From Clostridia bacterium (GTDB lineage: Bacteria; Bacillota; Clostridia; UMGS1883): 64,000 nucleotides of DNA. The first letter of the stretch is position 1; each line of letters starts with the position of its first letter. The stretch covers positions 94 through 64,093 of the forward strand of contig JAFQQD010000041.1 of the NCBI GenBank assembly GCA_017411435.1. The letters run 5' to 3'. Made by a program: the position numbers and the translations under genes. Below are positions 6,908 through 64,000 of the stretch, piece after piece. The notes under the pieces were generated by a model. It worked only from the letters and a program-made list of their open reading frames with translations. It had not been told where the DNA came from and searched no databases.

Positions 6908-6976
6908 TTAATTTTATCATATTTACATCTATATTGCAACAAAAAAACTGCAGTGAGTTACTGCAGTTTTTTGTTA

Positions 6977-26880: not shown

Positions 26881-26902
26881 TTTTTTGCCACAAAATATAT
26901 GT

Positions 26903-26979
<77 letters not shown>

Positions 26980-26984
26980 TATGT

Positions 26985-27062
26985 GGTGGGTATAGCTCAG
27001 TTGGTTAGAGCGCTAGATTGTGGCTCTAGAGGCCGAGGGTTCGAGTCCCTCTATCCACCCCA
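26985..27062 (+). tRNA. tRNA-His (anticodon GUG) with an encoded G-1
   Basis: Extra 5' G. Anticodon stem-loop ctaga-ttGTGgc-tctag. T-arm ggttcgagtcc. CCA encoded. Confidence 0.85.
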
Positions 27063-27100
27063 CTTATCCACCTGAGTTACACTCAGCATTGTAACTATGT

Positions 27101-27177
27101 TGGGCTGTAGCCAAGTCGGTTAAGGCACCAGACTTTGACTCTGGCAGTCGCAGGTTCAAGTCCTGCCAGCCCAGCCA
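27101..27177 (+). tRNA. tRNA-Gln (anticodon UUG)
   Basis: U1-A72 acceptor tgggctg/cagccca, anticodon loop cuUUGac, CCA encoded. Confidence 0.85.
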
Positions 27178-27181
27178 ATAC

Positions 27182-27257
27182 GGGCCATTAGCTCAGTCGG
27201 CAGAGCACTTGACTTTTAATCAAGTTGTCCGGGGTTCGAATCTCCGATGGCTCACCA
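27182..27257 (+). tRNA. tRNA-Lys (anticodon UUU)
   Basis: Acceptor gggccat/atggctc, anticodon loop cuUUUaa, T-arm ggttcgaatc, CCA encoded. Confidence 0.85.
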
Positions 27258-35469: not shown

Positions 35470-35526
35470 TTCCCCTCCTGATGTATTTATGATTTAAGTA
35501 TATCATATAACGATAAGTCATTCAAG

Positions 35527-35563
35527 AAAAAAATGGCGAAACACTTTTGTGTTTCGCCATTTT
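35527..35563 (-). terminator. Terminator 3' of beta-helix paralogue 2
   Basis: aaaaaaatggcgaaacacttttgtgtttcgccatttt palindrome. Confidence 0.7.
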
Positions 35564-35570
35564 GAATTGT

Positions 35571-39734: not shown

Positions 39735-39990
39735 TTTTTCTCCTCCTTTTAGAATGAAAAAGTTTTGGAAATAACTCCAACACTACAAGATAATAATAAT
39801 GCATATTTTATAGAAAGTAAATGCCAAAAAATATGTTTCCATATTGCAAAAAGTGTGATTTTTACTATAGTTTTCCAACACATGTTATTTTTAACAAAAA
39901 TAAGCGTGCCGCTTCACCCATTTTGCGTCCCTTCTAAACTCAAAACCAACAAGTGTTGCTCGCAATAAAAACACAAAGGTTCCCTATACG

Positions 39991-40033
39991 AAAAAAACAC
40001 ACAACTTCAAAAGAAATTGTGTGTTTTTTTGTC
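39991..40033 (-). terminator. Bidirectional terminator 3' of the uxuB-like gene
   Basis: aaaaaaacacacaac...ttgtgtgttttttt palindrome. Confidence 0.65.
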
Positions 40034-40039
40034 TTTTAA

Positions 40040-48777: not shown

Positions 48778-50559
48778 TTACTTAGACAGAATACCATATA
48801 TGATTTTTGCGCCTTCTGCTCTTGAGATATTTGCCTTGGGCCTGAAGCTTCCGTCTTCGTAACCGCCAACAATACCCTGTTCGTACAATGCATTTACTGC
48901 ATCAGCAGCGTAAGCACTGATATCAGCCTTATCTGCGAAGTTAGCTTCACCTACAGCTGAGTAATTGAGAGCTCTGCAAATCATAACTGCGAAATCTTCT
49001 CTTGTTACATTGTTTCCTATACCAAATGCTGTTTCACTAACACCATTGATGATGCCTGCTTTTGAAAGTGCTGCGATATAAGGAGCATACCATGCCGACG
49101 GGTCAACATCGGCAAATGCAGTGCTCTCATAAGAAGGCTCGATACCAACTGTAAGGCAGATGATTTTCGCAGCCTGCTCGCGAGTCAATGTGCCAGCGGG
49201 GTTGAAGCGCTGATTACCTACACCATTGATGATACCCTTGTCAGCAAGAGAGATGATTGCTGTCTTTGCCCAGTCATATCCGCCAAGGTCAATGAATGCA
49301 CTTACGGGAGTAGTTGTACCGCCGACGCCAACTGAAACGCTGCCTGTGTTACCACTGGTTCCTGTGTCTGTACCGGGGTTATTTACAGTATAATCTTTCT
49401 TTGCAGATGCAATAATCTTTGCTTCAAGATTTTCTGCTGTAATAGTAGCTCTTTCGTTGTAAATGTCGTTATTTACAGCTGCTATGTTTGCATGGTCAAG
49501 ATATTCTGTCTTGAGAGTATCATTGCCTACAGATACAACATCAAGACCTGCTGCTGCAAGGTTGTCTGCCGTAAGAACTTTTTCAACAATACCATAACCG
49601 CTGTCCTTGTTTCTTCTGATACCCTGAACGAGGATTTCCTTTGCAAATGCTTCACAAAGGTCCTGCTCGTCATCAGCGTCATTATTAAAGATACCATTAA
49701 GAGCAGCGCTTACGCCTGCTGTTGTAAGCTTTGTTGTGTAGATAGTATTGAGAGTGCCTTCTGTTTCAATGTAATCAGTAAGGCCAAGGATTTCATCATA
49801 TACAATTGCAGTTCCGTTAAGAGAAGCCGCAATATCCTGATTGAAGCCTTCAATAGCTATGCAAAGTCTGAGAGCTGCATCAAAAGCAGAATATTCATCA
49901 AGGTAATCTGCTTCATTACCTGCTGTGTATCCTGCAAAGAGGTCTGCTGCAAGCTTGCTTCTGAGAAGTGCTGCAAGCTCTTCCTTGTCAAGCTCTGCAA
50001 AAACTGCGCCGTCTACTGCGAACTCTTCCTTATTTTCTTCTATAAGAGCGCCTGCCGCAGCATCGTCTGCTGCTTCAACTACTTCCTTTGCAGCTGCAAG
50101 CTTTGTATCTTCTGCAGCAAGCCAGTATGAAGCTGTTGCAACCTCGCCGTCATATGCTGCGCCGCCTGCGTAGATGTCAAATGTGTATGAATCATCTTCG
50201 CTGTCTGCGATAGCAGTATCCATATTGAGTGTGAACACAAATTCGAAGTAACCGTTTGCTTTTGTAACTGCAGCGTTCTGATACTGAACTCTTGCAGCGA
50301 TGTTTGCTTCGATATCTTCCATATCATTGTTATCATCATTATTTACATCTTTATTTGTTACAAGAAGTGTTACACCCTCCCCTGCTGCAGCGCCGGGAGC
50401 TGTACCGGAAATTTTAAGTGTGCCGGCAACACTGTCAATTACTGTTATGTCAACAGTAAGTGCCTCTGGAGTTGTCTCAGCAGCAGCAAAAACTGCTGCT
50501 GAGAACATATAAACCACGCAGAGGGCTAATGTAAGAATTCTTTTCTTAGTATTCATCAA
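48778..50559 (-). CDS. Secreted protein with three C-terminal SLH domains
   Basis: Signal peptide 'MMNTKKRILTLALCVVYMFSAAVFAAAE'. C-terminal 'DWAKTAIISLADKGIINGV...LTREQAAKII', 'WYAPYIAALSKAGIINGV...VTREDFAVMI' and 'AYAADAVNALYEQGIVGGY...ISRAEGAKII'. The start overlaps the stop of the upstream beta-helix gene (ATGA). Confidence 0.75.
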   Translation of the reverse strand: MMNTKKRILTLALCVVYMFSAAVFAAAETTPEALTVDITVIDSVAGTLKISGTAPGAAAGEGVTLLVTNKDVNNDDNNDMEDIEANIAARVQYQNAAVTKANGYFEFVFTLNMDTAIADSEDDSYTFDIYAGGAAYDGEVATASYWLAAEDTKLAAAKEVVEAADDAAAGALIEENKEEFAVDGAVFAELDKEELAALLRSKLAADLFAGYTAGNEADYLDEYSAFDAALRLCIAIEGFNQDIAASLNGTAIVYDEILGLTDYIETEGTLNTIYTTKLTTAGVSAALNGIFNNDADDEQDLCEAFAKEILVQGIRRNKDSGYGIVEKVLTADNLAAAGLDVVSVGNDTLKTEYLDHANIAAVNNDIYNERATITAENLEAKIIASAKKDYTVNNPGTDTGTSGNTGSVSVGVGGTTTPVSAFIDLGGYDWAKTAIISLADKGIINGVGNQRFNPAGTLTREQAAKIICLTVGIEPSYESTAFADVDPSAWYAPYIAALSKAGIINGVSETAFGIGNNVTREDFAVMICRALNYSAVGEANFADKADISAYAADAVNALYEQGIVGGYEDGSFRPKANISRAEGAKIIYGILSK

Positions 50560-53500
50560 TTAAAACCCCTCTCAAAACCTTTTGCCGCAGTCTGAAGCTT
50601 CGCTGTATCAGCTTCTGTGAAGTTAAGCTTATCTGCGATAAATATCAATTTCGCGTCGCCGTACCACATTACCTTCTTGCCGAGGGCTTCAACAGTAGCA
50701 CGAAGCGGAATCATTGTTCTGCCGTTTACAAGCTTTGCTTCGGTTTCTGACTCTTTTGCTACACCATTAGCTGTGTAAGTCTTGTTTCCGAGTGTAAACT
50801 TAACAACATTTTCACCACTTGTGATGGTTGCTGTCTGTGTTGCCGCATCCCAGTCAACCTGCGCACCGAATGCTTCAGATACGAAACGGAGCGGAACCAT
50901 AGTTCTGCCATTTTCAATGTAAGGAGCAACATCAGGAATTGTGAGTTCGTCCATAACTGAATATGCTGTCTGGCTGTCAACCTTCATAAGAAGAAGATTT
51001 TCAGCGTAGTCATAGAAGGTACGGTTGAATTCAAGGAGTTCCTTGTCTGCCTTTGTTACACCGATTGCAGGAGCGACAAGTGTTCCCTGTCCGCTGCCCT
51101 TGATTGTAAATACGATGTCACCTGTTTTACCCCAGCTTGCACATTCGTATGTACCGAGGTATACCCATCCTTCTTCACCCTGCGAGAAGTCAATGGTCTT
51201 TGTAACATTCGTCTTACCGCCTGTTGTGGGTGAGTATGCTACCAGTGAAATAGTTGCATTCGGGTCACCGCCGGGGGTGGGCTTGTGGTAATAATATGTC
51301 TTGTAGGGAACTTCTGTATCGGTTACTGTGTAAACAATCTGTGCATTGGCGTCGGTTGAAACCTGAACCTTTGAGCCATCGATTGTTGTATCAGAAATTT
51401 CTGTGAAGTTACCTGTCTTAACAGCGTTCTTGCTTGACGGGTTAGAGATAGTCTTTGCGTCAGACATCTGCGGAGCTGAACCTTCATATACGAAGGGCTC
51501 TGTGGGAATGTCTGCTGCAGGCATCTGCTTGAGCTGAACCTTGGCACCTTCACTACCGGGATATACTACAAAGTAGCCATCGCCGAAGTTGGGAGTATCA
51601 GTATCAAATTCGCTGAATACCATGTTTCCGTTAACCTTAAGGAATACATTTACACCGCCGGGAACGTCAACCGCACCCATTTCGATATCTACCCATGTAT
51701 CTTCCTTAATATAATCATTGGGATATGTTGTAATGATACCTGTCTTTGCTGCCGCGGGGTTGTATTTCTGGAATTCAATCTGATTTTCCTTGATAACTAT
51801 AAGATAGTTCTTAAGAGCTGCCTTATAAGAAATCATTGAGGTATCGCTCTGCTTGAAGGAAAGACCTGTCCAGCCCTTATAGTTAATCTTCATCTTGAAG
51901 TGCTTAACCATATATCCCTGGTTTATTTCGTCAAGCCAAGCCCAGCCGCTGCCGAGAGCATCGATAGTAACTGTGTCTCCTGCCTGCGTAGCGGTTGTCG
52001 CTGCAGAGGATACTGCCCATTTACCCTTTTCGATGTTAAGAGCTGCATGGCCCTTGTTCTTGTAACCGGTAATACCATCCTGGAGGTTCTGAAGTTTAGC
52101 AATCATATCCTGAATGTCTTCCTGTCTGCCTGTTGCCTTGTTGGAAAGTGCCTGTGCTTCGGCAAGGATTGCGTCAATTTGAGAAACTGCATCTGCACTG
52201 AACTGACCTAACTCTTCTCCGATGTTTGCTTCAACAGTCTTTCTGAGCGCCTTAACATTCTTGATTTCGTCATTAAGCATTTCTTTTTCAAGAACATCTT
52301 CCTTGGTAGTCTTGAACATATAGGGAACGCCGTCACTTGGCCAGGTATTACCAAGCTGCTTACCCTGGTTTGTTGCCCAAACCTTGTAGTAGTAAACTGT
52401 GTCGTTCTTAAGGTCGGGAAGCTGAACCACATTGTAAAGAGACTTACCTGAAGCAACAACATTCTTAAGCTCAGGGTCAGTTGCTACTACATATTCGTAG
52501 ATATCAGCAAAGCGGGCGTATTCCCACTTGATATAAGCGAGGTTTCTTATAACCTGTGTATCGCCGTTTGAGGGATAGAGAAGCTTGAAAGGTGTTGCGG
52601 GCTTCTGGATATCCCATACATCCTTCTGAATACCAATCTGGTCCATTGAGAAGTTATCCTCGTTAATGAATGTATCGGGATATCCGAATTCCTTGACATA
52701 TTCGCGTTTGAGTCGCCAGTCGTGATTAGCCGCGTCAACAAATACGCCGTAATCGTCAGTAATCTGGTTGTTTTCAACCTTACCATTATCGATGTGCACC
52801 TGCTTGATTGCGTTCTGGTTAACATCTACCGAAAGGTTGTTACAGAATACATTGTTTGCACAAAGGAGAAGTCTGCCGTCCTTATCAAGCTGCTCTCTGT
52901 ACTCAAGAATTCTGGGATATTTTGCAAGAATTGCGGGAGAGTTAGCGCTGTGCGTAGCTAATGTTGTGTTATATGCTGTATCGTGGATTTTGCTGCCACG
53001 GTCCTGCGCGTGAACACCTGTAGCAGAGTTTACTATGATATTTTCACAGTAGTAGCTGTCGGCACCTACGAAAAGGTTACCTGATGTACTCTTCTTGGAA
53101 CCCGGTACGATGATGTTGTGGTGAGCAATCTGACCTGACTGCCAGTCATCCCAGTAAATACCCTGAAGCTTATATCTTGCTTCGAAGATAGGAGCGAAGG
53201 TATGGATGTAGTTATAGGATAACTCGTTGTGCCACTCGTTCATCTTACGGCCGCAGTATACAACGCCCATGTCGGCAGCGTCCTGCGTAAGAGAGTGCAT
53301 TTCGTTATATCTTATCTTGTTTTCAAGGCTGCCGTACTGTATTGCCTGTGCATTGGGCTGACCGTGCATAATGTTGTTTTCAACTACATCGCCGATTGTT
53401 TCATTATATGCGTTTCTGCCGACACATACTGCGTACTTGGCAAACATACTGCCGCCTGTACCCCAGTTGAAGAAGTGACAGTTTGCAACACGGTTGCCGC

Positions 53501-54728
53501 TGGGTGAAAGGGTTTCCTTGTCGCCACCCTTGTTCAGTTCAATACCGTGGCCGTGAATATCATAAAGCTCACATGCCTCGATAAGGCAGTTTCTTGACTC
53601 GTTCACATAAATAGCACGATAACCGCCGATATTGCTGATGGTAGCATTGCGGACTGTGATATTGTCTGACTTATTGATGTAATAAGCGTAGTTATCAACA
53701 CTATCGCTGACATTTATGCCGTCAAATATAATGTTGGAAGCACCGTTTACATAGATATAGGATTTTGAGTAGGTGCTGAGTGTAAGCTTATCCGTTGTCT
53801 TAAGCTTGTAAGGCGGATAGTAGTAAAGCTTCTTGGTGTTCTTGTCAATAAAGAATTCACCCGGAGAGTCAACCTCTTCAAGGAGGTTTTCAATTCTCCA
53901 TCTGTGACCTGCTGATACACCGTAGATAGACTTCCAACCAAGGAACATTGTTTTGGATTCGAGGTTTACACCGCCGAAGGTAGTCCAGTCCATAGCGTAC
54001 TCGGAACCGAGGTAACCGCGGATAACTGCCTGGTCTGCCTTTTCCCATCTTTCAGGACGAAGGTTTGTGTATTTCCACTCGCCCCTCTCGCCCTTGGTAC
54101 CGCTTGAGATAAGCTCGCCTTGTTTAACTACGGTATTGATATACTCCCAACCGACATTGGGGTATTTTGCAAGCTCCTGTCTCTTATCGTTAAGAGAAAG
54201 GTAAACATATCCCTCAGGTTCACGGGGGTCTGTAGTTCTTGATGTATAGTCAACCATTGACCAGTCCATCTTATACTCTGAAAGGTCAAGTACACCAACC
54301 TTGCTCTGCACTTCGTCAGGAAGACGGTTGATGGTTTCCTTATCCTGGATAGGCTTAAAATCCATATGGTTAAGAGTTATTGCGCTGGAAACTCGAACCT
54401 CACCGTCGCCTGCTGCGCGGTAGATTACGGGGTACTTTTCAGTACCTGAATCTTCTGTTGTGAAGGTAAGTGCAAGTTCCTGCGGATAAACACCTGCATG
54501 AACAATAATTTCTGCCTGTTTCTTTCTGTGGTCTTTGCTGCGCAGATATGTCTTTGCAGCTTCAATTGTCTGGAATGGTTTTGCTTCACTGCCATCTCCT
54601 GCAAATTTTGAGTTTGAGTCGACATGAATTATAATCTTGTCGGCTTCTTCAGCCATTGCAGTAAACGGAAGGAGTGAGAAAACCATTGTCACTGCAAGGA
54701 GCAGTGAAATAATTCTTGATTTTTTCAT
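50556..54728 (-). CDS. Large secreted beta-helix/Fn3/Cu-amine-oxidase-N1-like protein (paralogue 3 of 3)
   Basis: 1390 aa. Signal peptide 'MKKSRIISLLLAVTMVFSLLPFTAMAEE'. Same domain order as the other two paralogues. Translationally coupled to the downstream SLH gene. Confidence 0.75.
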   Translation of the reverse strand: MKKSRIISLLLAVTMVFSLLPFTAMAEEADKIIIHVDSNSKFAGDGSEAKPFQTIEAAKTYLRSKDHRKKQAEIIVHAGVYPQELALTFTTEDSGTEKYPVIYRAAGDGEVRVSSAITLNHMDFKPIQDKETINRLPDEVQSKVGVLDLSEYKMDWSMVDYTSRTTDPREPEGYVYLSLNDKRQELAKYPNVGWEYINTVVKQGELISSGTKGERGEWKYTNLRPERWEKADQAVIRGYLGSEYAMDWTTFGGVNLESKTMFLGWKSIYGVSAGHRWRIENLLEEVDSPGEFFIDKNTKKLYYYPPYKLKTTDKLTLSTYSKSYIYVNGASNIIFDGINVSDSVDNYAYYINKSDNITVRNATISNIGGYRAIYVNESRNCLIEACELYDIHGHGIELNKGGDKETLSPSGNRVANCHFFNWGTGGSMFAKYAVCVGRNAYNETIGDVVENNIMHGQPNAQAIQYGSLENKIRYNEMHSLTQDAADMGVVYCGRKMNEWHNELSYNYIHTFAPIFEARYKLQGIYWDDWQSGQIAHHNIIVPGSKKSTSGNLFVGADSYYCENIIVNSATGVHAQDRGSKIHDTAYNTTLATHSANSPAILAKYPRILEYREQLDKDGRLLLCANNVFCNNLSVDVNQNAIKQVHIDNGKVENNQITDDYGVFVDAANHDWRLKREYVKEFGYPDTFINEDNFSMDQIGIQKDVWDIQKPATPFKLLYPSNGDTQVIRNLAYIKWEYARFADIYEYVVATDPELKNVVASGKSLYNVVQLPDLKNDTVYYYKVWATNQGKQLGNTWPSDGVPYMFKTTKEDVLEKEMLNDEIKNVKALRKTVEANIGEELGQFSADAVSQIDAILAEAQALSNKATGRQEDIQDMIAKLQNLQDGITGYKNKGHAALNIEKGKWAVSSAATTATQAGDTVTIDALGSGWAWLDEINQGYMVKHFKMKINYKGWTGLSFKQSDTSMISYKAALKNYLIVIKENQIEFQKYNPAAAKTGIITTYPNDYIKEDTWVDIEMGAVDVPGGVNVFLKVNGNMVFSEFDTDTPNFGDGYFVVYPGSEGAKVQLKQMPAADIPTEPFVYEGSAPQMSDAKTISNPSSKNAVKTGNFTEISDTTIDGSKVQVSTDANAQIVYTVTDTEVPYKTYYYHKPTPGGDPNATISLVAYSPTTGGKTNVTKTIDFSQGEEGWVYLGTYECASWGKTGDIVFTIKGSGQGTLVAPAIGVTKADKELLEFNRTFYDYAENLLLMKVDSQTAYSVMDELTIPDVAPYIENGRTMVPLRFVSEAFGAQVDWDAATQTATITSGENVVKFTLGNKTYTANGVAKESETEAKLVNGRTMIPLRATVEALGKKVMWYGDAKLIFIADKLNFTEADTAKLQTAAKGFERGFN

Positions 54729-54827
54729 TAATTTCTCTCCTCTTTTAAGAGCAAAATGCTCTGGGGAACAAAATTTATTGTCTTATACGAAAAACTTCTT
54801 ATTTGTATATGTATATAAGAGAGTTTC

Positions 54828-54875
54828 CACCCATCGGCACCGCATGGGTGCCGATAAGGTTTTTATTTATTTTTT
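54828..54875 (+). other. Orphan terminator-like hairpin (atcggcacc/ggtgccgat) followed by a T-run on the plus strand, at the left edge of repeat element R1
   Basis: 9-bp perfect stem followed by ggtttttatttattttttg. No plus-strand gene lies upstream. Confidence 0.4.
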
Positions 54876-55260
54876 GAGATTCTTCGCTTACGCTCAGAAT
54901 GACAAAGGGGCGCGCTCAGAACGACAAGATTGTGTCATTCTGAATGAGCATCCTCTTCCCCGTCATTCTGAAGGAGCATCCTCTTTCCTGTCATTCTGAA
55001 GGAGCGTCCTCTTTCCTGTCATTCTGAAGGAGCAAAGCGACTGAAGAATCTCTTTTTGGGGATTCTTCGCTTTGAGATTCTTCGCTTACGCTCAGAATGA
55101 CAAAGGGGCACGCTCAGAATGACAAAGGGGCACGCTCAGAATGACAAAGGGGCACGCTCAGAATGACAAGATTGTGTCATTCTGAAGGAGCAAATCGAGT
55201 GAAGAATCTCTTTTTTGAGATTTTTCGCTGTGCCTTTTCCTTTACACAAGGGAGGCTTTG
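54876..55260. repeat. Composite tandem/inverted repeat element R1 (22-nt and 30-nt units with a GTCATTCTGA/TCAGAATGAC core)
   Basis: 3 copies of ~30-nt 'gtcattctgaaggagc(a/g)tcctctt(c/t)cc'. Central gaagaatctc-N-gagattcttc hairpin. 3-4 copies of 22-nt 'cgctcagaatgacaaaggggca' in inverse orientation. Same family as R2 and R3. Confidence 0.85.
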
Positions 55261-55275
55261 AGGGGGATTTTTCGA

Positions 55276-58200
55276 TTACTCGCCGATTACTGTGTCTACT
55301 GCGAGTGAAAATTCTTTTTCTGTCATATCTTCGAGTGAATCCCATACGAAGCATTTTGCAGTGTATGTTTCTTCACTGTCACATACGAAGTCAGCAACTG
55401 AAACTGTGCATGACTGACCTGTTGTAAGTGTGTAAGCACCACCCTGTACTGCAACCATCTGACCTTTACTGTTGTAGATGGCAACTGTTGCAGTAAATAC
55501 GCAGGGAGCAGAATCCGTGTTATTCTTGATAACTGCAGAAATTGTAACTGTTCCTTCAATTTCTCCGCCGCCAACAACACCGAATGATTCGATTTCTGTC
55601 GGAGGATAGATTGTCATAAAGGGAATGTTTGCAAGCTCCTTACCGCTTTCAAGAGTTACATCGTCAAAATTGAGTGTGTATACACTCTTGTAAGCAAGGT
55701 CTTCGAAAGTAACTACGATTTCGTTAGCTGATGCAGCTTCGATTGAGTAACCTTCTACTTCGTTACCATCGCTGTCAAGAAGCTTAATCTTTGCAACCTC
55801 GGAAGAAAGAATTTCTTCTTCAAGAGTTACTGTAACTTCGCCTGTAAGGTCAACATCAACATCTGCATCGATTTCTGCTGCGCAGATTTCGTAAGCGCGT
55901 GTCATTACGATATCAACGATTTCAGCGTATGAGTCTGAAGCAGTTGATGAAGTAGGTTCAAACATAAGTAATGCTGCACCGTTGTTGCCGTGGTCGATAA
56001 TATTAAGCATCTTGTCGCCGTTTACGAAGAAGTTAGCATTTCCGTCCTTCATAGCGAGCTTAAGCTCAATACCTGTTGTACCATTAAGACCTGAATATGA
56101 AGTATCGGTCATGGTTGTTGTGTTGTAAGCGTAGTTTGTAGAGCCGTCACCGTCTGTATCGCCGAGGTCTGTCGGGATGGGATGTGAATATGCTCTCAAT
56201 GATGATGAAGCAACAGCCATCTGAATACCAATACCACGATACCATGTGTGGTCGAAGCCGTAGTTTGCGTTAGGCGCGAATGTATGACCGATACCGATAT
56301 TGGAGGTTGAAGTACCTGTGATATTCTTAAATGTTGCCTTAAGTGTGTAATCCTTGTGAGAGTAAACACTGTTGGGCTGTGCAAGAACTGAACCGATTGC
56401 CTTACTTGCGTCGCTGTCTTCCCCGACACCGTGAGTAATCATTGTTCTTGCCTTGTTCTGTCCTGAGTACTGAATCTTAAGGCCAAGACCGTCCTCGTGC
56501 TGAGTTACTGTGCCGTTACTCTTGTAAACATAAGTATCTTTGCCTGATGCGGTTGTAGGACCAACGAAGCCCTCGTCAAGAAGGTCAACCTTGAAGTTGA
56601 TTGTCTTTTCATCGTCTGCCCAGATTTCAGTTTCGCAATCAACATTGTAGATTGTGAGCGCATAGCCGATGAAGGGCTGAAGTCCGCCTTCGGGAATAAC
56701 CTTGTAGGTGTAACGAGTTGAGTTGCCTGCATCCATATATTCGCTTGCAGCTGCTTCAAATGTTACGGGAACAGTTGAATTACCCTGCTTAAGAGTAGCA
56801 TCGAGGTCTGTGATTTCTGCATTGAATTCAAGAGTGATGAAATCAAGGTCCGCGTTCCAGTCAACGAATACTTCGTCAAGAGCGATAGGCTCAACCTTTG
56901 TTGCAAATGCAACAGGGTTGATTGCAGCAAGTCTGTCTTCTGCGGCAACCTTTACATCTGTGAAAACGATTTCGTAATCTGATTCGTATGCAAGGTTTGC
57001 GTATTCGATTGTAGCTGTAAGCTTGTCAGCTGAAAGAGAAACTGTGTAGTCTTCAGTATTTACGGGGTCACCGTTTTCATCGTTAAGAACGATGCCGCCG
57101 ATTGTAGCTTCGTCAATTTCAGTATCGAATGTGATATCGAGTGAACCCTCGATATCAAGGCCTGTTGCAGAATCAAGCTCTGCATCAACTATCTGATATG
57201 CGTAGGGCGCGCCTTCAACTTCGCCTAACACAAATGCCTTTTTCCAGATAAGGAGAGCCTTTGTATCGCCTACATTAGCGATGTTTTCAAGCTTGATTTC
57301 GTAAGGGATTCCTTCTTCAATAGCACTTCCGTCTGCGGGAGCGATTACGATAACCTCAGGGCCTGCGACTGCTCCTGCAGTTGATTCAATTTCAACGCCG
57401 TTCTTTGAAAGAGTTGCGTCATATTCAGAAATCGGTTCTGAGAATGTAACTTCTACTCCGGCTGTGTCAACATCCCATGATGCGATAAGCTCGGGGCTTT
57501 GCGGAGGAAGGTCCTTTGTTCTGAAATTAAGCGCACCCTTGATTGATGCTTTTCCTGCGCCGTCTATCTTTACACCGTCAATGTTGATTGTGTAGTTTGT
57601 TTCGTATTCAAGGCGCTCAACAAAAGTGATTGTTGCTACTGTGTCGCCCTCTGAAAGAGAAACTGTGTAGTTTTCTGTGGGGATTGCTTCGCCGCCCTCG
57701 GGGATGATTTTGATGTTATCCTTTGTAGTAGGGTCAATAGCGCTGCTGAATGTAAGGTTAAGTGTATCTCTTACTTCAACATCTGTATCCTTGTCAAGCT
57801 CAACACTGAAGATTTCGCGAACCTGTGTTACCTGGAAATCGTAAATCTGACATTTTGCAGTTGTGCCTGATGTTGTACCTGAGGGGTTCATAGAGAGGAA
57901 GGGATAACCTGCGTTAACCTCTACCTCACCGTCCATAAGCTTTTCGCCGTTAAGGAATGCTCTTACAACGCCTGCCTTTGATGAAACCTTGAATTCAAAA
58001 CCATTTTCAAAATCGAGGTTGGGAGCACTTGTACGGGCAAAATAAGCAGCTCTGCTTGCTGAATCGCTTCTGTAGTTTGAATTAGCCATGAGATAGTAAG
58101 CAGCGTCATGGCTTGTTGTTTCCATTGCTGCGTAGTCGTATGTCTTGATACCTACGAATTTTGCACCGGTAGCACTTTCACTGTGGATATTCTGTGTGTC

Positions 58201-58908
58201 GCTTGCTATACCGAAGTTAACTGTAGCACGAGTAGTGTTTGAAGACTTGATAGTTGCCTTAACTGTGTAATCTGTTTCAGTCCAGTTTGCTGAACCTTCA
58301 GGTAAAGATTTGTTGGGAAGAATATGTTCTTCAGTAGTGTCGTTACCTACACGAGCACCTACTACTGACCAGTAGCTCATATTGTTACCTGCTGCCCATG
58401 ATTCAACCATCATACCGCCTGTCACATTATCGCGAACCCAGGTATTGGAGTTTCCCCACTTGTAGGGAACGATGTTAACAAGGTCCGCATCATCTGCAAG
58501 TTCGTAAACTGCGAAAGTCAAATCGCGGTGTTCAAGTGTTGATGAACCCTCGGCAGCGGCAACATCTTCAAACGAGATTGTGTACTCGTCCTCAAGAACG
58601 ATACCGTCGTCAAGAGTTACCTTGTAAGTGTAGCGAGATGATACACCGTCTGCCTGAACATTAGCGTTTGCGTCTGCCTTGGCAAGGGTAAATTCATCTT
58701 CTGCCAAATAAGTTTCGCCATGCATAATAGCGATGGCTGAGTTTTCGAGGTCAATCGCCTGATTGAAATCGAGTGTAATGAAATCTGCGTCTGCGTCCCA
58801 GCTTACAAGCTCGAGAGGGTCAGCAGCGATTACGCTGAGTCCTGACAAAGCGGAAACAAGCATGCAAACGCATAAAATTATTGATTGAATTTTCAAATAT
58901 TTTGCCAT
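55276..58908 (-). CDS. Large secreted protein of unknown function with an internally duplicated ~200-aa domain (paralogue A)
   Basis: GAGGA RBS. Signal peptide 'MAKYLKIQSIILCVCMLVSALSGLSVIAADP'. Two copies of a domain carrying 'NFGIASDTQN...YRSDSASRAAYFARTSAPN' / 'NIGIGHTFAPNANYGFDH'. The first ~400 aa are >80% identical to the 59634..62195 product. Confidence 0.7.
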   Translation of the reverse strand: MAKYLKIQSIILCVCMLVSALSGLSVIAADPLELVSWDADADFITLDFNQAIDLENSAIAIMHGETYLAEDEFTLAKADANANVQADGVSSRYTYKVTLDDGIVLEDEYTISFEDVAAAEGSSTLEHRDLTFAVYELADDADLVNIVPYKWGNSNTWVRDNVTGGMMVESWAAGNNMSYWSVVGARVGNDTTEEHILPNKSLPEGSANWTETDYTVKATIKSSNTTRATVNFGIASDTQNIHSESATGAKFVGIKTYDYAAMETTSHDAAYYLMANSNYRSDSASRAAYFARTSAPNLDFENGFEFKVSSKAGVVRAFLNGEKLMDGEVEVNAGYPFLSMNPSGTTSGTTAKCQIYDFQVTQVREIFSVELDKDTDVEVRDTLNLTFSSAIDPTTKDNIKIIPEGGEAIPTENYTVSLSEGDTVATITFVERLEYETNYTINIDGVKIDGAGKASIKGALNFRTKDLPPQSPELIASWDVDTAGVEVTFSEPISEYDATLSKNGVEIESTAGAVAGPEVIVIAPADGSAIEEGIPYEIKLENIANVGDTKALLIWKKAFVLGEVEGAPYAYQIVDAELDSATGLDIEGSLDITFDTEIDEATIGGIVLNDENGDPVNTEDYTVSLSADKLTATIEYANLAYESDYEIVFTDVKVAAEDRLAAINPVAFATKVEPIALDEVFVDWNADLDFITLEFNAEITDLDATLKQGNSTVPVTFEAAASEYMDAGNSTRYTYKVIPEGGLQPFIGYALTIYNVDCETEIWADDEKTINFKVDLLDEGFVGPTTASGKDTYVYKSNGTVTQHEDGLGLKIQYSGQNKARTMITHGVGEDSDASKAIGSVLAQPNSVYSHKDYTLKATFKNITGTSTSNIGIGHTFAPNANYGFDHTWYRGIGIQMAVASSSLRAYSHPIPTDLGDTDGDGSTNYAYNTTTMTDTSYSGLNGTTGIELKLAMKDGNANFFVNGDKMLNIIDHGNNGAALLMFEPTSSTASDSYAEIVDIVMTRAYEICAAEIDADVDVDLTGEVTVTLEEEILSSEVAKIKLLDSDGNEVEGYSIEAASANEIVVTFEDLAYKSVYTLNFDDVTLESGKELANIPFMTIYPPTEIESFGVVGGGEIEGTVTISAVIKNNTDSAPCVFTATVAIYNSKGQMVAVQGGAYTLTTGQSCTVSVADFVCDSEETYTAKCFVWDSLEDMTEKEFSLAVDTVIGE

Positions 58909-59004
58909 ATTTTATTCCTCATTAATCAAATTTCGATGTGGTTACTGTTTTGTAACGAGCATGAAGCCCGAAACAAATGCAAAATGCATAATGCATAATG
59001 CAGA

Positions 59005-59421
59005 ATTTCCTTTCCTGTCATTCTGAAGGAGTGCAACGACTGAAGAATCTCCGAGATTCTTCGCTTACGCTCAGAATGACAACTTCTTCCCCGTCATTCT
59101 GAAGGAGCTTCCTCTTTTCCTGTCATTCTGAAGGAGCAAAGCGACTGAAGAATCTCTTTTGGGGATTCTTCGCTTCGAGATTCTTCGCTTACGCTCAGAA
59201 TGACAAAGGGGTGCGCGCTCAGAATGACAAAGGGGTGTGCGCTCAGAATGACAAAGGGGGCAAAATGACAAACCTTTCCAAAGCCCTCCTTGTGCAAAGG
59301 AGGGTGGCACGCGTAAGCGTGACGGGAGGATTGTTTTGTCAGTAATTTGCTTTGTTTGCAATCCCTCCGAGTTGCTTCGCAACCCACCTCCCTTTACACA
59401 AGGGAGGCTTCAGGGGAAGTC
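59005..59421. repeat. Composite tandem/inverted repeat element R2 (same family as R1 and R3)
   Basis: Units 'cctgtcattctgaaggagc', the gaagaatctc...gagattcttc hairpin (twice) and 3x 'gcgctcagaatgacaaagggg[tg]'. Additional long palindrome at 59285-59400 (gggaggattg...caatccctcc; ccctccttgtgcaaaggaggg). Confidence 0.85.
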
Positions 59422-59590
59422 TTATGGGTGTCGTCTGATTTCGCATTTCGCATTTCCTTACGCGTGTGCGCGCGTAAAAAAAAATAAAATAAGTAATATA
59501 TGCTGTTTATATCAACTAAAAAAGGGCATAGCTATCGCGTTGAATTCGACATAAAAGTCTAAAAAGCGTAGCCTAATAAAGCCTAATATA

Positions 59591-59618
59591 GGGAGGGGAC
59601 TTTTAAGTACCCCTCCCT
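59591..59618 (-). terminator. GC-rich hairpin immediately 3' of the 59634..62195 gene (probable terminator)
   Basis: gggagggg-acttttaagt-acccctccc with an 8-bp G/C stem, 15 nt after the stop codon. The U-tract is weak. Confidence 0.45.
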
Positions 59619-59633
59619 GAAAGGCGTAACTAA

Positions 59634-62195
59634 TTATTCAACTTCGATTGCGGGGAACCAGGCTTTGAGTGCGTCTGCGCTATCCCAAACGAAGATTTTT
59701 GCGTATGTACCGCCGTTTGTTTCAACATTTGCAAACTCAAGGTCTGTCTCACCTGTGTATGCAGCCTCAACCTCAGAGATGATAAGGTTTGTCATTGCGC
59801 CTGCTGCATTGTAGAATGCGCATGCTGCGAAGATTGCCTTATCGTTGAGTGTGTTGTTTGTAAGAGTTGTTAAAATTGAAACAGTTTCGTTACCTGCGAT
59901 TGCACCTTCAGCAACTGAAGCTTCGCCAATAGTAAAGTACTCGCCTGTTACATCAAGGTGTGTTGCACGGGTTGCAACGAAATCAGCAAGTGTAACTGAC
60001 ATACCCTGTGTAGAGTCGATTGCAGTCATGTTTACACAAATCTGTGCTGAACCTGCGTAATCCTGCTGAAGTGCCATGTCACTAACCTTAGAACCGTTGA
60101 TGTATGCACGAGCGTGCTGGTTCTTTGTTGAAAGCTTAAGAGTTGTACCTGCTTCGCCAAGGTCTACATCGAAGTAGCTACCCTGAGAAGCGTATTCCTG
60201 ACGATAGAGGTTACCGTTTGCAGATGAGTATGCACCTGTTGTGTCATACACCTTGAGGTTACCGCGATCCTGCTGTTCGTCGCCGGGAACAACTTCAGAA
60301 AGGTCCTGAACCTGCATACCTACACCTCTGAAGTATGAGTGGTCAACACCATAGCTTGCATTTCTTGAATATGCAGTAGAAAGCGCATATGAACCGTTCT
60401 TAACGTTTTCAGTATCCTTAAATGTTACCTTAACTGTGTAATCCTTTTCTGTGTAGGGAGAAGTCTTGCTCATTGAAGATTTTGATGAGTCTGTATCTTC
60501 ACCTACTGCGCGGTAAACAAACATTCTGCCTGTTGAAGACTTAGCTTCTGTTGTCAGTACAAGGTCGTCACCGTTAACATTTGAATATGTGGGAGTTGTG
60601 CTCTTGTTAAGGTATGTCTGTACAGAGCTTTCTGTGTCGTGTGTAAGACCTTCTGCGATAACTTCTACCTTGAAGGTCTTGGACCAGTTTGCAAGAACAA
60701 CATTACCTTCAGCGTCCTTAACATTAGCGATTGTTACTGTGTAGGGGATATCGCGTACGATACCGCCTGAAACGGGCTGAACCTTCCATGTGTAACGGGG
60801 AGCTTCTTCGATATCTTCATTTGTTGCAGTTGCACCTGCAGTAGCAACTTCCACACCTTTAGATGTTGTTACCATATTCTCGTCGTTAGCACAGCTTACA
60901 GTTACAGGAATCATTGTACCTGCCTGTGTAAGAGTTGCGTCAAGAGAAGCGATTTCTTCTGCGAAATCTACTGTGAAGAAGTCAAGGTCAGCATCCCAGT
61001 CAAGGATTTCTACGGGGAGTTCGCCTTCATCGGGTTCGGGAGGAACATAGCCCTCGGGAGCAACAACTGCAACTTCTTCGAATGTTGACTGTGTTACCTG
61101 GAAATCATAAAGCTGAACCTTTGCAGTTGTATCTGTTGTTTCACTTGATACATATACAGAAGCGAAGGGATAACCTGCAAGAACTTCTACTTCACCGTCC
61201 ATAAGCTTTGCGCCGTCCATGAATGCTCTTACAACGCCGTCCTTTGATGAAACCTTGAATTCAAAACCTGCTTCAGGATTGTAGTTGGGAGCACTTGTAC
61301 GCGCAAAGTAAGCAGCTCTGCTTGCTGAATCGCTTCTGTAGTTTGAATTAGCCATGAGATAGTAATCAGCGTCATGACTTGTTGTAGTCATTGCTGCGTA
61401 GTCGTATGTCTTGATACCCGTGAATTTTGCACCGGTAGCAGTTTCACTGTGCATATTCTGTGTGTCGCTTGCTATACCGAAGTTAACTGTACCACGAAGC
61501 ATGTTTGAAACCTTGATAGTTGCCTTTACAGTGTAATCTGTTTCAGTCCAGTTTGCCGAACCTGCAGGTAAACTTTTGTTGGGAAGTATATGCTCCTCAG
61601 TAGTGTCGTTACCTACACGGGCACCTACTACTGACCAGTAGCTCATGTTGTTACCACCATGATTGAATGCTTCAATCATCATACCGCCTGTTTCTTCATC
61701 GCGAACCCAAGTGTTGGAGTTGCCCCACTGGTAGGGAACTATGTCAACAAGGTCTGCATCAGTAGCGAGCTGCGCAACTGAGAATACAAGAGCGCTCTGT
61801 TCAAGTGTTGAAGCACCGTCAGAAGACTTAACATCCCAGAAAGAAACTGTGTACTCGTCGTCGAGAACGATATCGTCTGTAAGAGTCATCTTGTAGGTGT
61901 AGCGAGATGAAACACCATCTGCCTGAACAGAAGAGTTTGCATCTGCCTTAGCAATTGTGTAGTCCACACCTGCCTCCAAATATTCATCGCCGTGTTTAAC
62001 AACGAACTGTGAATTTTCGAGGTCAATCGCCTGATTGAAGTCGAGTGTGATGAAATCTGCGTCAGCGTCGTAGCTAACGAGTTCAAAGGGATCAGCTGCA
62101 AATACTGTCAAACCTGAAAGCATTGTTACAGCCATGCAAAGAGCTACCAAAAGAGAAAGGATTTTGCTAGTCTTTTTCATAATTTTTACCTCCAA
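59634..62195 (-). CDS. Large secreted protein of unknown function (paralogue B of 55276..58908)
   Basis: Signal peptide 'MKKTSKILSLLVALCMAVTMLSGLTVFAADP'. Shares the N-terminal ~400 aa and the duplicated domain (repeated 'SNYRSDSASRAAYFARTSAPN') with paralogue A. Related C-terminal 'KIFVWDS' beta-sandwich. Confidence 0.7.
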   Translation of the reverse strand: MEVKIMKKTSKILSLLVALCMAVTMLSGLTVFAADPFELVSYDADADFITLDFNQAIDLENSQFVVKHGDEYLEAGVDYTIAKADANSSVQADGVSSRYTYKMTLTDDIVLDDEYTVSFWDVKSSDGASTLEQSALVFSVAQLATDADLVDIVPYQWGNSNTWVRDEETGGMMIEAFNHGGNNMSYWSVVGARVGNDTTEEHILPNKSLPAGSANWTETDYTVKATIKVSNMLRGTVNFGIASDTQNMHSETATGAKFTGIKTYDYAAMTTTSHDADYYLMANSNYRSDSASRAAYFARTSAPNYNPEAGFEFKVSSKDGVVRAFMDGAKLMDGEVEVLAGYPFASVYVSSETTDTTAKVQLYDFQVTQSTFEEVAVVAPEGYVPPEPDEGELPVEILDWDADLDFFTVDFAEEIASLDATLTQAGTMIPVTVSCANDENMVTTSKGVEVATAGATATNEDIEEAPRYTWKVQPVSGGIVRDIPYTVTIANVKDAEGNVVLANWSKTFKVEVIAEGLTHDTESSVQTYLNKSTTPTYSNVNGDDLVLTTEAKSSTGRMFVYRAVGEDTDSSKSSMSKTSPYTEKDYTVKVTFKDTENVKNGSYALSTAYSRNASYGVDHSYFRGVGMQVQDLSEVVPGDEQQDRGNLKVYDTTGAYSSANGNLYRQEYASQGSYFDVDLGEAGTTLKLSTKNQHARAYINGSKVSDMALQQDYAGSAQICVNMTAIDSTQGMSVTLADFVATRATHLDVTGEYFTIGEASVAEGAIAGNETVSILTTLTNNTLNDKAIFAACAFYNAAGAMTNLIISEVEAAYTGETDLEFANVETNGGTYAKIFVWDSADALKAWFPAIEVE

Positions 62196-62237
62196 ATAAA
62201 TTTTTTATATTTTAATTAAAATTATTTTTAACTAAAT

Positions 62238-63710
62238 TTATTTGCTGTTTCTAGCCTTTTCTTCAAGGAATGCATCAACCTGACGCTGTGCTTCAGCGAT
62301 AACTTTTTCAAGTCCTCTGTCGTACATACCCTGAATATAATCGTCATAACCGTCTTCGATTGACTTAGCACCTACAAAGTAAGCAGTACCCTTTTCCTTA
62401 CGATAAGCTGTAAGGGCGGTGATTTCTGCTTCAACCTTTGAATTGTCAAATGAGAAGCCAAGAACGGGAGATACCTGATCGAGTTCAACTGCCTCGTTAT
62501 TAAGAGCTTCTGTCTGTTCCCAAACATCTGCGTCAGCACCTTCTCTTACGAGAGCGTTGAACTGGTTACCGAACTTCCAGTCAGCTTCAGGAGCGTACTT
62601 GCTGTCTTCCTTCTTTACAACAAAGCCGTCTTCGTTAAGGTCGTAGTGTACGCCTTCAATACCGAAGCAGATAAGGTTATAAAGCTCCTTGTTTGTGTTG
62701 ATAAGTTCGATGAACTTCATTGCCTCTTCCTTATGCTTGGAATTCTTACCGATACCAATCATTGTAGACTGACAAGCGCCTGCCTTGATGTAGGGCTTTG
62801 CAATGTTCCTAACAGCAACAACATCTTTGCCGAGAACATTCTTGATGTTTACTTCAACACCGGGCTTGTATGTCTGGATATCCATAGCATACTTACCTGC
62901 GAGGTAATCTGAGTTATCGTCTGTTGCAGAGAGTACATCCTTACGGATATAGCCCTTCTCATACCAACTGTAACGAATTCTCATACCTTCGAGGAATGAT
63001 TCGTGGTTGTCTGTGAATACAACATCGATACCTGTTTCGCCGTCAAAAGAGTCCTTATCGATAGCTATACCGATGGGAACGATTTCTTCAAATGTACCAT
63101 CAACCTTGAAGTAAGCGTTTCTGTTTCTCCAGGGCCAGATACCATCTTCATTTTCGTAAACTGCCTTCATGAAGGGTTCAAGCTGTGAGTATTCTGTGAT
63201 AGAATCTACATCAAGATTGTACTTTTCAACAAGTTCTACGGGAATGAAGGGGCAAGACTGTGCAGCAACAATCTGCTGATTGGGTACTGCGTAGATTTTT
63301 CCGTCAACCTTTGCTGCATCCCAGTAGAACTGAGGTGTAGCTTCTACAAGATCAGGAGTGAGCTTCAAAAGCTCATCAAGGGGTTCAAGACCACCAAGCT
63401 TCGCAGCTTTTGAGTAAACATTGATGTAACCTGTGAAGCAAAGGTCGAAATCGTCCTTTGAAGCCATCTTAAGTTCCATCTTCTGGCTAAAAGCACTCTG
63501 GTCAAGGAATTTGAGGTCGATTCTTGCACCAATTTCCTTTTCAACGATCTTGTTAGCGGCTTCCATAACCAAAGCGGTATCTTCCTGAGCATCGCCAGGT
63601 ACATACCATACAAGAGTAGGAATGTCGCCGTCTGCCTCTTTCTTGCCACAGCCTACAAAGCATGCTGCCACGAGTGTAAGAGCAAGAATTAAAGCAAGAA
63701 CTTTTTTCAT
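62238..63710 (-). CDS. ABC-transporter extracellular solute-binding lipoprotein (family 1, carbohydrate-type)
   Basis: Lipobox 'LVAACFVGCG'. ~490 aa SBP_bac_1-like sequence with aromatic-rich binding-cleft segments. Confidence 0.7.
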   Translation of the reverse strand: MKKVLALILALTLVAACFVGCGKKEADGDIPTLVWYVPGDAQEDTALVMEAANKIVEKEIGARIDLKFLDQSAFSQKMELKMASKDDFDLCFTGYINVYSKAAKLGGLEPLDELLKLTPDLVEATPQFYWDAAKVDGKIYAVPNQQIVAAQSCPFIPVELVEKYNLDVDSITEYSQLEPFMKAVYENEDGIWPWRNRNAYFKVDGTFEEIVPIGIAIDKDSFDGETGIDVVFTDNHESFLEGMRIRYSWYEKGYIRKDVLSATDDNSDYLAGKYAMDIQTYKPGVEVNIKNVLGKDVVAVRNIAKPYIKAGACQSTMIGIGKNSKHKEEAMKFIELINTNKELYNLICFGIEGVHYDLNEDGFVVKKEDSKYAPEADWKFGNQFNALVREGADADVWEQTEALNNEAVELDQVSPVLGFSFDNSKVEAEITALTAYRKEKGTAYFVGAKSIEDGYDDYIQGMYDRGLEKVIAEAQRQVDAFLEEKARNSK

Positions 63711-63770
63711 AATAACATCTCCTTCTATAATATAAATTACAATTAAAATTAAAATTAAAATTCGTAATAA

Positions 63771-64000
63771 TTGGGATTCTTCGCTGCGTTGTTTGGGGAC
63801 AGGTCAATTTTTGTTGCACCTGCGGATTACAAAAATGTCCCACGTCCCCCTATGGGGAGCGTCGCTCAGAATGACAGTGCTGTGTCATCCTGAAGGAGCA
63901 AAGCGACTGAAGAATCTCCTCTGGGATTCTTCGCTGCGCTCAGAATGGCAAAGGGGTGAGCGCTCAGAATGACAAAGGGGTGTGCGCTCAGAATGACAAA
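63771..64000. repeat. Composite repeat element R3 (truncated by the window end; same family as R1 and R2)
   Basis: gggattcttcgctgcg, gaagaatctcctctgggattcttcgc hairpin and 'gcgctcagaatgacaaaggggtg' units. Upstream stem gggaca..atttttgt/acaaaaat..gtccc. Confidence 0.8.

Follow-up and report, generated by a model that had tools for sequence, protein, structure and literature searches.

A stretch of 64,000 nucleotides from a Clostridia bacterium (contig JAFQQD010000041.1 of assembly GCA_017411435.1; hereafter the window) carries three repeat elements in successive intergenic gaps, namely element 1 (54876-55260), element 2 (59005-59421) and element 3 (63771 to the window end), and a fourth mosaic of the same kind lies past the window end. 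These elements are probably mosaic clusters built from a small palindromic repeat that is non-coding and non-autonomous, akin to the bacterial interspersed mosaic elements (BIMEs) of Escherichia coli and the intergenic mosaics of Neisseria (NIMEs), and are likely to be selfish or neutral. Their building block is a hairpin, 5'-TGTC-ATTCT-GA-(apical stem-loop)-GA-AGAAT-CTC. This unit is found widely, in many phyla and in phage contigs, usually as a head-to-head dimer, and arrays of its 5' half recur on the tag side of complete units. In the lineage of the window, the repeats were added to pre-existing intergenic sites, which went from empty to a single unit to a mosaic, and the mosaics were rearranged through module swaps between strains less than 0.5% apart in their flanking genes.

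A hairpin with a conserved base and a variable apex

Two versions of the unit make up the mosaics of the window. The short unit is TGTC-ATTCT-GA-GC-GTAA-GC-GA-AGAAT-CTC, while in the long or 'two-tier' unit the apex is replaced with AG-GA-GC-AAA-GC-GA-CT, giving three tiers in all. The general form can be written as 5'-(T/C)GTC, A-N-N-C-T, G-A, apical stem-loop, G-A, A-G-N'-N'-T, C-T-C. An unpaired 5' tag, a 5-bp base stem and a tandem G·A internal loop are its conserved parts, and the apical helix varies freely (GC-GNA-GC, GC-GTAA-GC or the longer AG-GA-GC-AAA-GC-GA-CT), with loops that are GNA (any N) or GNRA-like. The apex is thus interchangeable with quite different helices while the base is kept, and it tolerates an insert of ~80 nt (in the split unit at 63773-63877). 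The tandem G-A/G-A between the helices is set by the search pattern in the units found by scanning; it is kept in every complete unit of the window and together with quite different apical helices.

Covariation supports the view that the unit folds as a hairpin and that this hairpin is under selection. In 75 distinct by-catch units, whose sequence the seed pattern did not force, pairing is seen in 97.3% of cells, a level matched by none of 500 shuffles, and controls in which the pairing is slid pair at 18-48%. Compensatory double changes occur in five of the seven pairs (68 cells; 75 units). The first stem pair (A-T) is set by the search pattern, so its 75/75 is no test; the free second pair is T-A in 57 and C-G in 15 of the 75. 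Base stems are seen as ATTCT/AGAAT, ATCCT/AGGAT, ACCCT/AGGGT and ATGCT/AGCAT, and apical GC..GC changes to AC..GT or GT..AC. Likewise, among 262 regular-expression matches the variable base-stem dinucleotides are complementary in 251 and not in 11. A hammerhead-like, K-turn or C/D-box reading of the CUGA...GA motif was also considered and rejected, as the stem covariation fits a plain hairpin and Rfam returns sub-threshold matches only.

Organization of the mosaics

The module map of the window contains 10 complete hairpin units, 13 orphan 5' halves and 3 orphan 3' halves, with no hairpin unit in the first 54 kb. Five of the complete units are long and lie on the + strand; the other five are short and lie on the - strand. 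Nine begin with TGTC and one with TGCC, and some orphan halves begin with CGTC. Each element is built around one or two dimers of a long + unit with a short - unit, and all four dimers in the window are head-to-head. In five of five cases, the half-unit arrays outside the dimers are found at the tag end of a complete unit, in the same orientation. Matches to the core GCTCAGAATGACAA (at most 2 mismatches) number 14, all within 54892-63999, where shuffles expect 0.73, and a lone extra match at 19305 is of chance grade. Tandem Repeats Finder (TRF) delineates arrays of 28 nt x3.6 at 54933-55034, 22 nt x3.7 at 55088-55169, 24 nt x2.8 at 59192-59259 and 24 nt x2.7 at 63936-64000. Element 1 itself is roughly a 198-nt duplication, as seen from repeat families at a spacing of 198.

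An initial annotation of this DNA had described three composite elements at these positions, mixing direct and inverted units, non-coding, distinct from a CRISPR array and able to fold into long hairpins. The sequence, the TRF arrays and the module map bear this out: the units abut and their filler is constant, and open reading frames (ORFs) across the elements give no significant match to Pfam, with one weak match under its family cutoff. Each element is predicted to form a single long imperfect hairpin, with predicted folding energies as DNA of -81.5 kcal/mol (z -7.4) for element 1 and -90.6 kcal/mol (z -7.8) for element 2. The same annotation took the 22-nt units for the reverse complement of the 30-nt units, which is right for a common 11-nt core, TGTCATTCTGA, shared in reverse complement by the 22/24-nt and 28-nt units; it does not extend to the fillers, which are only partly complementary, the arms being ~70% complementary.

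The units of element 3 extend ~70 nt past the window, and the gap that holds them closes ~270 nt past it, as seen on the related contig L121; the continuation of the element is present in L121 and L122. The fourth mosaic (L121 6729-7603) lies between a gene for a 1070-aa beta-helix protein and ABC permease genes. Four gaps are therefore occupied in succession over ~17 kb (gaps 1 to 4 below). The G+C content of the region is unremarkable.

Distribution across phyla, phages and plasmids

The reach of the unit was measured with the scan pattern GATTCTTCGC-N2-5-GCTCAGAATGAC, which has 22 fixed bases and for which our own arithmetic gives ~0.3 chance matches in 596 Gb. The exact pattern is present in at least 120 stretches of GTDB species genomes, cultured isolates included, that span at least 17 phylum-level groups by record titles. 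These include Nitrospirota, Bacteroidota, Acidobacteriota, Chloroflexota, four proteobacterial classes, Campylobacterota, Firmicutes, the Candidate Phyla Radiation (CPR), Planctomycetota, Verrucomicrobiota, Fibrobacterota and others. The exact pattern is also found in at least 120 viral-contig stretches of IMG/VR, and the two-tier variant TGTCATTCTGAAGGAGCAAAGCGACTGAAGAATCTC, which is common in JGI metagenomes, in at least 120 stretches of that collection. Carriers in culture include Pedobacter nototheniae, Mucilaginibacter sp. L196, Lacinutrix jangbogonensis and Planktothrix agardhii. Plasmids of Planktothrix and Calothrix carry the hairpin unit and were the sole matches in a BLAST search of phage and plasmid collections, which returned no phage match; among 5,426 complete E. 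coli genomes the unit occurs in none.

GTC is preceded by T in 191 of the 233 units from genomes and by C in 18; in viral contigs, T precedes it in 222 of 250 units and C in 17. The tail is CTC in ~43% of units and CCA in 17/233 (genomes) and 3/250 (viral contigs), its first C being nearly invariant. Neighboring units in genomes are arranged head-to-head in 64 cases, head-to-tail in 10 and tail-to-tail in 9; the corresponding counts for viral contigs are 42, 12 and 7. Most copies elsewhere are single units or simple dimers. For 70 of 138 two-tier units in metagenomes an inverted partner is present, mostly of the short type and at a median spacer of 24 nt, and an orphan 5' half lies just upstream of 21 of the 138. 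Arrays of at least three 5' half-units, 5' of a complete unit and with fillers that are locus-specific and usually C/T-rich, are found at 10 of 240 foreign loci. The architecture seen in the window is typical of the repeat family.

What accompanies the units was examined by an all-against-all BLASTP comparison of ORFs within 1.2-1.5 kb of ~360 loci. Among the largest clusters listed there is no recurrent transposase-like one, and the recurrent neighbors among them are phage structural genes and histidine-kinase-like genes. Neither the ~74 kb of source genome that were available nor the surroundings of the foreign copies show a gene for a RAYT (the Y1 HUH transposase of REP systems). Small GIY-YIG nuclease genes beside the repeats were rejected in the same way, with no recurrent neighbor of this or a transposase type.

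Several individual loci deserve description. On Planktothrix agardhii plasmid p1 (NZ_LR882964.1; L126 1380-1620), a head-to-head dimer and a four-unit half-repeat array lie inside an annotated coding sequence of MmeI restriction-modification type, so that either the insertion is intragenic and in frame or the gene call is too long. Some metagenome contigs are saturated with such repeats: one (L290 640-2000) has at least 10 dimers in tandem with a 109-nt period, and another locus (L299, over its whole length) has many units with the base CGTCATTCTGA...GAAGAATC and differing apical helices. In a set of related IMG/VR phage contigs (among viral loci L127-L246; e.g., L144 4640-5041 and L243 8962-9363), units adjoin apparent phage structural genes, a label that comes from translations only. 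A recurrent viral ORF of 133 aa opens with a translated unit (MKSLPVILSEAKNL...), and its start is for that reason probably mis-called.

Growth and rearrangement in relatives

The relatives available for comparison are syntenic with the window. Contigs L121-L125 encode an identical ABC substrate-binding protein (SBP), and L247 and L249 encode SBP orthologues of 93% and 67% identity. The gap between permease and SBP genes, which is that of element 3, is 59 nt long and free of repeats in L249; in L247 it reaches 283 nt, with one unit and further modules. At 496 nt it is longer in L123 and L124, and it is longest, at 557 nt, in L121, L122 and the window. Gap 4, between the beta-helix gene and the permease gene, is similarly empty in L249, holds a single 28-nt unit, TGTCATTCTGAGCGTAGCGAAGAATCTC, in L247 and contains a mosaic of ~330 nt in L121.

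Among the closest strains, the change is one of whole modules. L121 and L123 differ at 9/1840 and 13/4077 sites of adjacent genes (0.3-0.5%), and in gaps 3 and 4 whole modules are replaced between them. Element 1 is identical in the window, L121 and L122, and element 2 is identical in L123 as well. The comparison rests on short-read assemblies, in which rare variants would escape, and several contigs end inside mosaics. Filled and empty sites (L249, L247, L121) reveal no clean target-site duplication, these genomes being too divergent for certainty.

A separate form of variation affects the Big_5 gene between elements 1 and 2. Approximately 160 of its 166 differences between L121 and L123 fall in one internal tract of ~1.2 kb (L121 15000-16250; ~57460-58710 in the window) that overlaps a segment 84% identical to a paralogue at 61089-61388. 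This tract looks like gene conversion or a diversifying domain. The idea that mosaics serve as recombination borders for exchange of a Big_5 cassette was rejected, given that the differences lie in the internal tract rather than between the mosaics.

Relation to described repeat families

The closest published relatives are the CGTC-tagged repetitive extragenic palindromic (REP) sequences, a superfamily described by Di Nocera, De Gregorio and Rocco (2013, BMC Genomics 14:522; PMC3733652). Its members have an unpaired CGTC tag (TGTC and CCTC also being accepted), a stem of 8-9 bp starting A, T, a loop of 4-5 nt and a 3-nt tail that is usually CCA; head-to-head dimers predominate and occasional copies are intragenic (PMC3733652). 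They occur in five phyla, have no dedicated transposase and form clusters that were called rare, and they include dRS3 of Neisseria as well as RPE-4 and RPE-6 of Rickettsia (PMC3733652). The unit described here has the same unpaired CGTC/TGTC tag (T or C before GTC in ~90% of units), the A-T start of the stem and a short C-rich tail that nearly always begins with C. It too is found predominantly in head-to-head dimers, with spacers of 20-100 nt, in several phyla, sometimes within genes and with no flanked transposase gene. In rare cases (two dimers), the unit is joined to a canonical one of the dRS3/CGTC-1 type, TGTC-ATTCCCGC-GAAG-GCGGGAAT-CCA.

The unit nevertheless departs from the superfamily in its geometry. 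Instead of 8-9 uninterrupted base pairs and a loop of 4-5 nt, it has 5 bp, tandem G·A/A·G, 2 bp and a loop of 3-4 nt or an extra tier, and its tail tends to CTC where theirs is usually CCA. Clusters are frequent here, as are half-unit arrays, whereas clusters of CGTC-tagged REPs were called rare, and the published range of five phyla lacks Firmicutes, Acidobacteria, Chloroflexi, Cyanobacteria, CPR and phages, in all of which the unit is found. Because the stem and loop geometry differs, and to a less clear extent the tail consensus, the unit is best filed as a variant related to the CGTC/TGTC-tagged REP superfamily and not as a member of one of its four families. The initial annotation had called the family novel, a label not supported in view of four features common with the superfamily and the presence of the unit in at least 120 stretches of each of the GTDB, IMG/VR and JGI collections.

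Other families offer partial parallels. Like the REPs and BIMEs of E. coli, the REPINs of Pseudomonas and the NIMEs of Neisseria, the elements are intergenic mosaics of hairpins in alternating orientation and other short motifs, with tandem reiteration of units or dimers together with flanking DNA and a content that differs between strains. NIMEs also cluster near surface and virulence genes. In contrast to GTAG REPs and the REPIN-RAYT system, the tag is TGTC/CGTC rather than GTAG, and whereas REP and REPIN sequences are lineage-specific, this unit is nearly the same across phyla. Miniature inverted-repeat transposable elements (MITEs) such as Correia/NEMIS, RUP, ERIC and Nezha are likewise short, non-coding, bounded by inverted repeats, able to form long hairpins, dispersed in many copies and sometimes located in operons. 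Unlike them, the elements have yielded no target-site duplication or parent insertion sequence (~360 loci for the parent), and while the terminal repeats of MITEs pair only with their partner, the conserved part here is a self-folding hairpin of 25-36 nt whose single units stand alone. The elements do behave like a miniature non-autonomous repeat family, in line with one of the hypotheses of the initial annotation. The RepRanger paper and a survey of HuH endonucleases do not treat this unit.

Layout of the region and neighboring genes

The genes that flank the repeat elements are all on the - strand. Their positions and those of the individual modules are collected in Table 1.

Table 1. Genes and repeat modules in the distal part of the window
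Feature	Position	Strand	Remarks
Beta-helix / Cu_amine_oxidN1 gene	50556-54728	-	
Element 1	54876-55232		module map: 4 complete units, 7 orphan 5' halves, 1 orphan 3' half
Short complete unit TGTCATTCTGAGCGTAAGCGAAGAATCTC	54876-54904	-	GTAA apical loop
Three orphan 5' half-units in tandem, TGTCATTCTGAAGGAGC plus C/T-rich filler	54933-55016	+	28-nt period; adjoins the 5' side of the complete unit
Long 'two-tier' complete unit TGTCATTCTGAAGGAGCAAAGCGACTGAAGAATCTC	55017-55052	+	head-to-head dimer with 55074-55102; the 21-nt spacer contains an orphan 3' half (55059-55068)
Short complete unit	55074-55102	-	dimer partner of 55017-55052
Three orphan 5' half-units	55103-55169	-	22-nt period; 5' of the - strand complete unit
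Two-tier complete unit (55175-55210), then degenerate inverted partner GAGATTTTTCGCTGTG	55175-55232	+	
Big_5 gene	55276-58908	-	
Element 2, TGTC-unit part	59016-59260		identical in L121, L122, L123
Element 2, head-to-head heterodimer 1	59016-59051; 59053-59081	+; -	
Element 2, head-to-head heterodimer 2	59121-59156; 59177-59205	+; -	
Element 2, orphan 5' halves	59092; 59219; 59243	+; -; -	
Element 2, orphan 3' half	59162-59171		
Element 2, unrelated small palindromic modules CCCTCCTTGTGCAAAGGAGGG, CACGCGTAAGCGTG, GGGAGGATTG...CAATCCCTCC, CCTCCCTTGTGTAAAGGGAGG	59277-59410		separate repeat class
Gene without Pfam family	59634-62195	-	
ABC substrate-binding protein (SBP) gene	62238-63710	-	
Split unit: 5' half TGTCATTCTGAGCG, 3' half GCAGCGAAGAATCCC	63773-63877	-	~80-nt palindromic insert in apical loop
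Element 3 core: head-to-head dimer, then 24-nt orphan 5' half array	63883-64000		63883-63918 (+) with 63923-63950 (-); array passes the window end

A second class of small palindromes (CCTCCCTTGTGTAAAGGGAGG, CCCTCCTTGTGCAAAGGAGGG, GGGAGGATTG...CAATCCCTCC, CACGCGTAAGCGTG) adjoins the TGTC units at 55235-55255 as well as in element 2, and recurs in the orthologous gaps of L247, the relative at 93% identity (9717-10000 and 7253-7500). The split unit of element 3 has an identical second copy in gap 4 (L121 ~6835-6940), an indication that insertions enter at the apical loop or, alternatively, that the split composite is a repeat in its own right. Short AT-rich microsatellite-like repeats edge the mosaics (AAATTA x4.8 at 63734-63762, AAATGCA x4.6 at 58975-59006, ATTTCGC x2.7 at 59438-59456).

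With regard to structured RNA, five tRNAs, encoded as a cluster at 26807-27254, are alone in passing the gathering thresholds of Rfam over the window. At E-values up to 10, nothing credible was found within 54700-59600; snoRNA matches in that scan are sub-threshold (E 0.8-2.8).

A specific link between the elements and surface-protein genes, proposed initially, is not borne out by the genes themselves. Proteins with SLH and Cu_amine_oxidN1 domains are also encoded elsewhere in the window, in keeping with a Clostridia-type organism, and the best named homologues come from 'Clostridia bacterium' metagenome-assembled genomes. Two beta-helix / Cu_amine_oxidN1 genes of 1380 and 1387 aa (31327-39734) are paralogous to the gene at 50556-54728 and like it in architecture. 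The regions upstream of these two paralogues (31327-39734, 39735-40039) are plain AT-rich sequence with none of these repeats. Moreover, two of the four occupied gaps sit ahead of ABC-transporter genes.

A tie of the elements to the promoters of surface genes, as had been supposed, is not supported either. Promoter-like consensus matches in the region show no excess over shuffled sequence. Close to its start, the SBP gene has an AT-rich stretch, conserved in the relative that lacks repeats, which is located outside the mosaic and on its downstream side, a comparison that could be made for the one gap with comparable relatives, that from permease to SBP. An AATTTT-type run directly upstream of the SBP ribosome-binding site is also kept even in the repeat-free L249.

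Terminator-like consensus matches in the region are in total no higher than in shuffled sequence, and the mosaics contain no clear case of a hairpin followed by a T-run on the coding (-) strand. On the - strand the mosaics contribute a single terminator-like match, a weak stem of 5 bp (63856-63839) within the insert that splits the unit of element 3, and their other match, at 55198-55229, belongs to the + strand.

Origin of the mosaics and alternative explanations

If the elements are indeed clusters of a mobile palindromic repeat, units would seed a site through a single-stranded hairpin intermediate, recognized in trans by an enzyme that is not encoded alongside. The mosaics would then grow locally through tandem duplication, slippage and recombination between cores of 11-13 nt. 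Effects on neighboring genes, such as mRNA 3'-end protection or partial insulation of co-directional genes as reported for E. coli REPs, would arise as a by-product, and would not amount to a dedicated switch.

Several points weigh against this account. No target-site duplication, excision footprint or mobilizing enzyme was found, so that mobility is something we infer. Dispersal within the source organism is unproven, ~74 kb of its genome having been seen, and as the four occupied gaps are contiguous, the repeats could have a local function. Strict membership of the CGTC families fails on the stem and loop geometry, and the tail tends to CTC where CCA would be expected. Searches of the literature with DNA strings and translated unit peptides, which cover open-access text only, found nothing relevant. 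Finally, the DNA energy model rates single units as marginally stable (-2.3 to -3.3 kcal/mol, z ~0), so the case for the hairpin comes from covariation and not from thermodynamics. Mini-hairpins of the d(GCGNAGC) type and tandem sheared G·A pairs in a 5'-Y-GA-R-3' context are unusually stable in DNA, and this extra stability is missed by nearest-neighbor models.

One alternative is that the hairpins act in cis at the RNA level, being transcribed and kept as 3'-end stabilizers, partial terminators or insulators between cistrons in the manner of E. coli REPs, for which mRNA stabilization, termination and gyrase binding have been proposed. All four occupied gaps lie between co-directional genes, the permease-SBP gap of L249 is just 59 nt, which suggests co-transcription and would make the mosaic intercistronic, and the RNA energy model prefers the G/A-rich strand (-8.1 vs -5.6 kcal/mol). 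However, both orientations are present within each element, and across phyla the G/A strand runs along the gene direction in just 105 cases and opposite to it in 81. Divergent gaps are not avoided either, with 30 against 31 convergent ones by crude gene calls. In the mosaics the lack of a - strand hairpin with a T-run and the chance level of terminator-like matches speak against a role in termination, and a separate strong hairpin follows the stop of the 848-aa gene upstream. As the principal explanation an RNA-level function is therefore unlikely, yet as a side effect it is compatible with a selfish or neutral repeat.

A second possibility concerns the conserved hairpin base itself (TGTC tag, ATYCT/AGRAT stem, 5'-Y-GA-R-3' tandem G·A, variable apex), which might be the recognition platform of a widespread trans-acting enzyme or host process that works on folded single-stranded DNA. 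Such a platform would explain why a sequence of ~25 nt persists near-verbatim in at least 17 phyla and in phages. It would also explain the absence of an adjacent transposase and the tag-side arrays of 5' half-units, which would be abortive or processive products. We hold this specific proposal to be speculative and quite unlikely as it stands.

The elements might alternatively be miniature derivatives of a DDE transposon with several transposase sites per end, as in Tn7 or Mu, the half-unit arrays being the sites and TGT...ACA the termini. Consistent with such a layout, 54933-55169 has four inward TGTCATTCTGA sites from the left and four from the right, and both outer junctions read ACA-AGATTG-TGT. 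These junctions fall within the 198-nt local duplication, however, and because of this AGATTG does not count as evidence of target-site duplication. The other findings run against it as well: no transposase recurs near the ~360 loci, copies elsewhere are mostly single units or simple dimers, and the most conserved part is a hairpin with a non-palindromic G·A/G·A loop and compensatory stem changes, more in keeping with a single strand that folds than with a binding site in duplex DNA. A DDE origin is accordingly very unlikely.

Highly improbable, lastly, is the contingency (phase-variation) switch put forward in the initial annotation, whereby slipped-strand changes in the number of 22-28-nt units would alter promoter geometry and toggle the downstream surface-protein genes: tandem arrays do lie upstream of genes for large secreted or surface proteins, as at simple-sequence contingency loci, and two of the four gaps do differ between near-identical strains, but elements 1 and 2 show no difference among the assemblies spanning them, gaps 3 and 4 vary by module replacement and not by gain or loss of units, the units of 22-28 nt contrast with the short tracts of classic loci (about 1-7 nt), the conserved AT-rich start-proximal stretch is downstream of the mosaic, two paralogous surface-protein genes have no repeats, and these repeats also precede transporter genes and turn up in hundreds of unrelated settings in other genomes.

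Implications

At the level of the locus, reading the elements as mosaic clusters of a non-autonomous palindromic repeat is deflationary, since what had been taken for a candidate regulator of surface-protein genes would be selfish or neutral repeat clutter rather than a dedicated one. For annotation, the elements are best masked and the spurious ORFs across them dropped.

For the repeat family, the consequences are broader. The unit widens the CGTC-tagged superfamily beyond the five published phyla to Firmicutes, Acidobacteriota, Chloroflexota, Cyanobacteria, CPR and phage contigs, and provides the family with a sharply defined structure, supported by covariation, in which a conserved G·A internal loop is combined with a modular apex. 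The conserved module could be used for phylogenetic profiling or in pull-downs, and bears on how such repeats spread with no transposase, a question that dates from 2013. The interest of the unit lies in a near-invariant hairpin of ~25 nt that is maintained across phyla and phages with no linked transposase and with adjoining arrays of 5' half-units. Should its base prove to be what a trans-acting enzyme or host process recognizes, the unit would represent a pan-bacterial mobile hairpin with a new mechanism of propagation.

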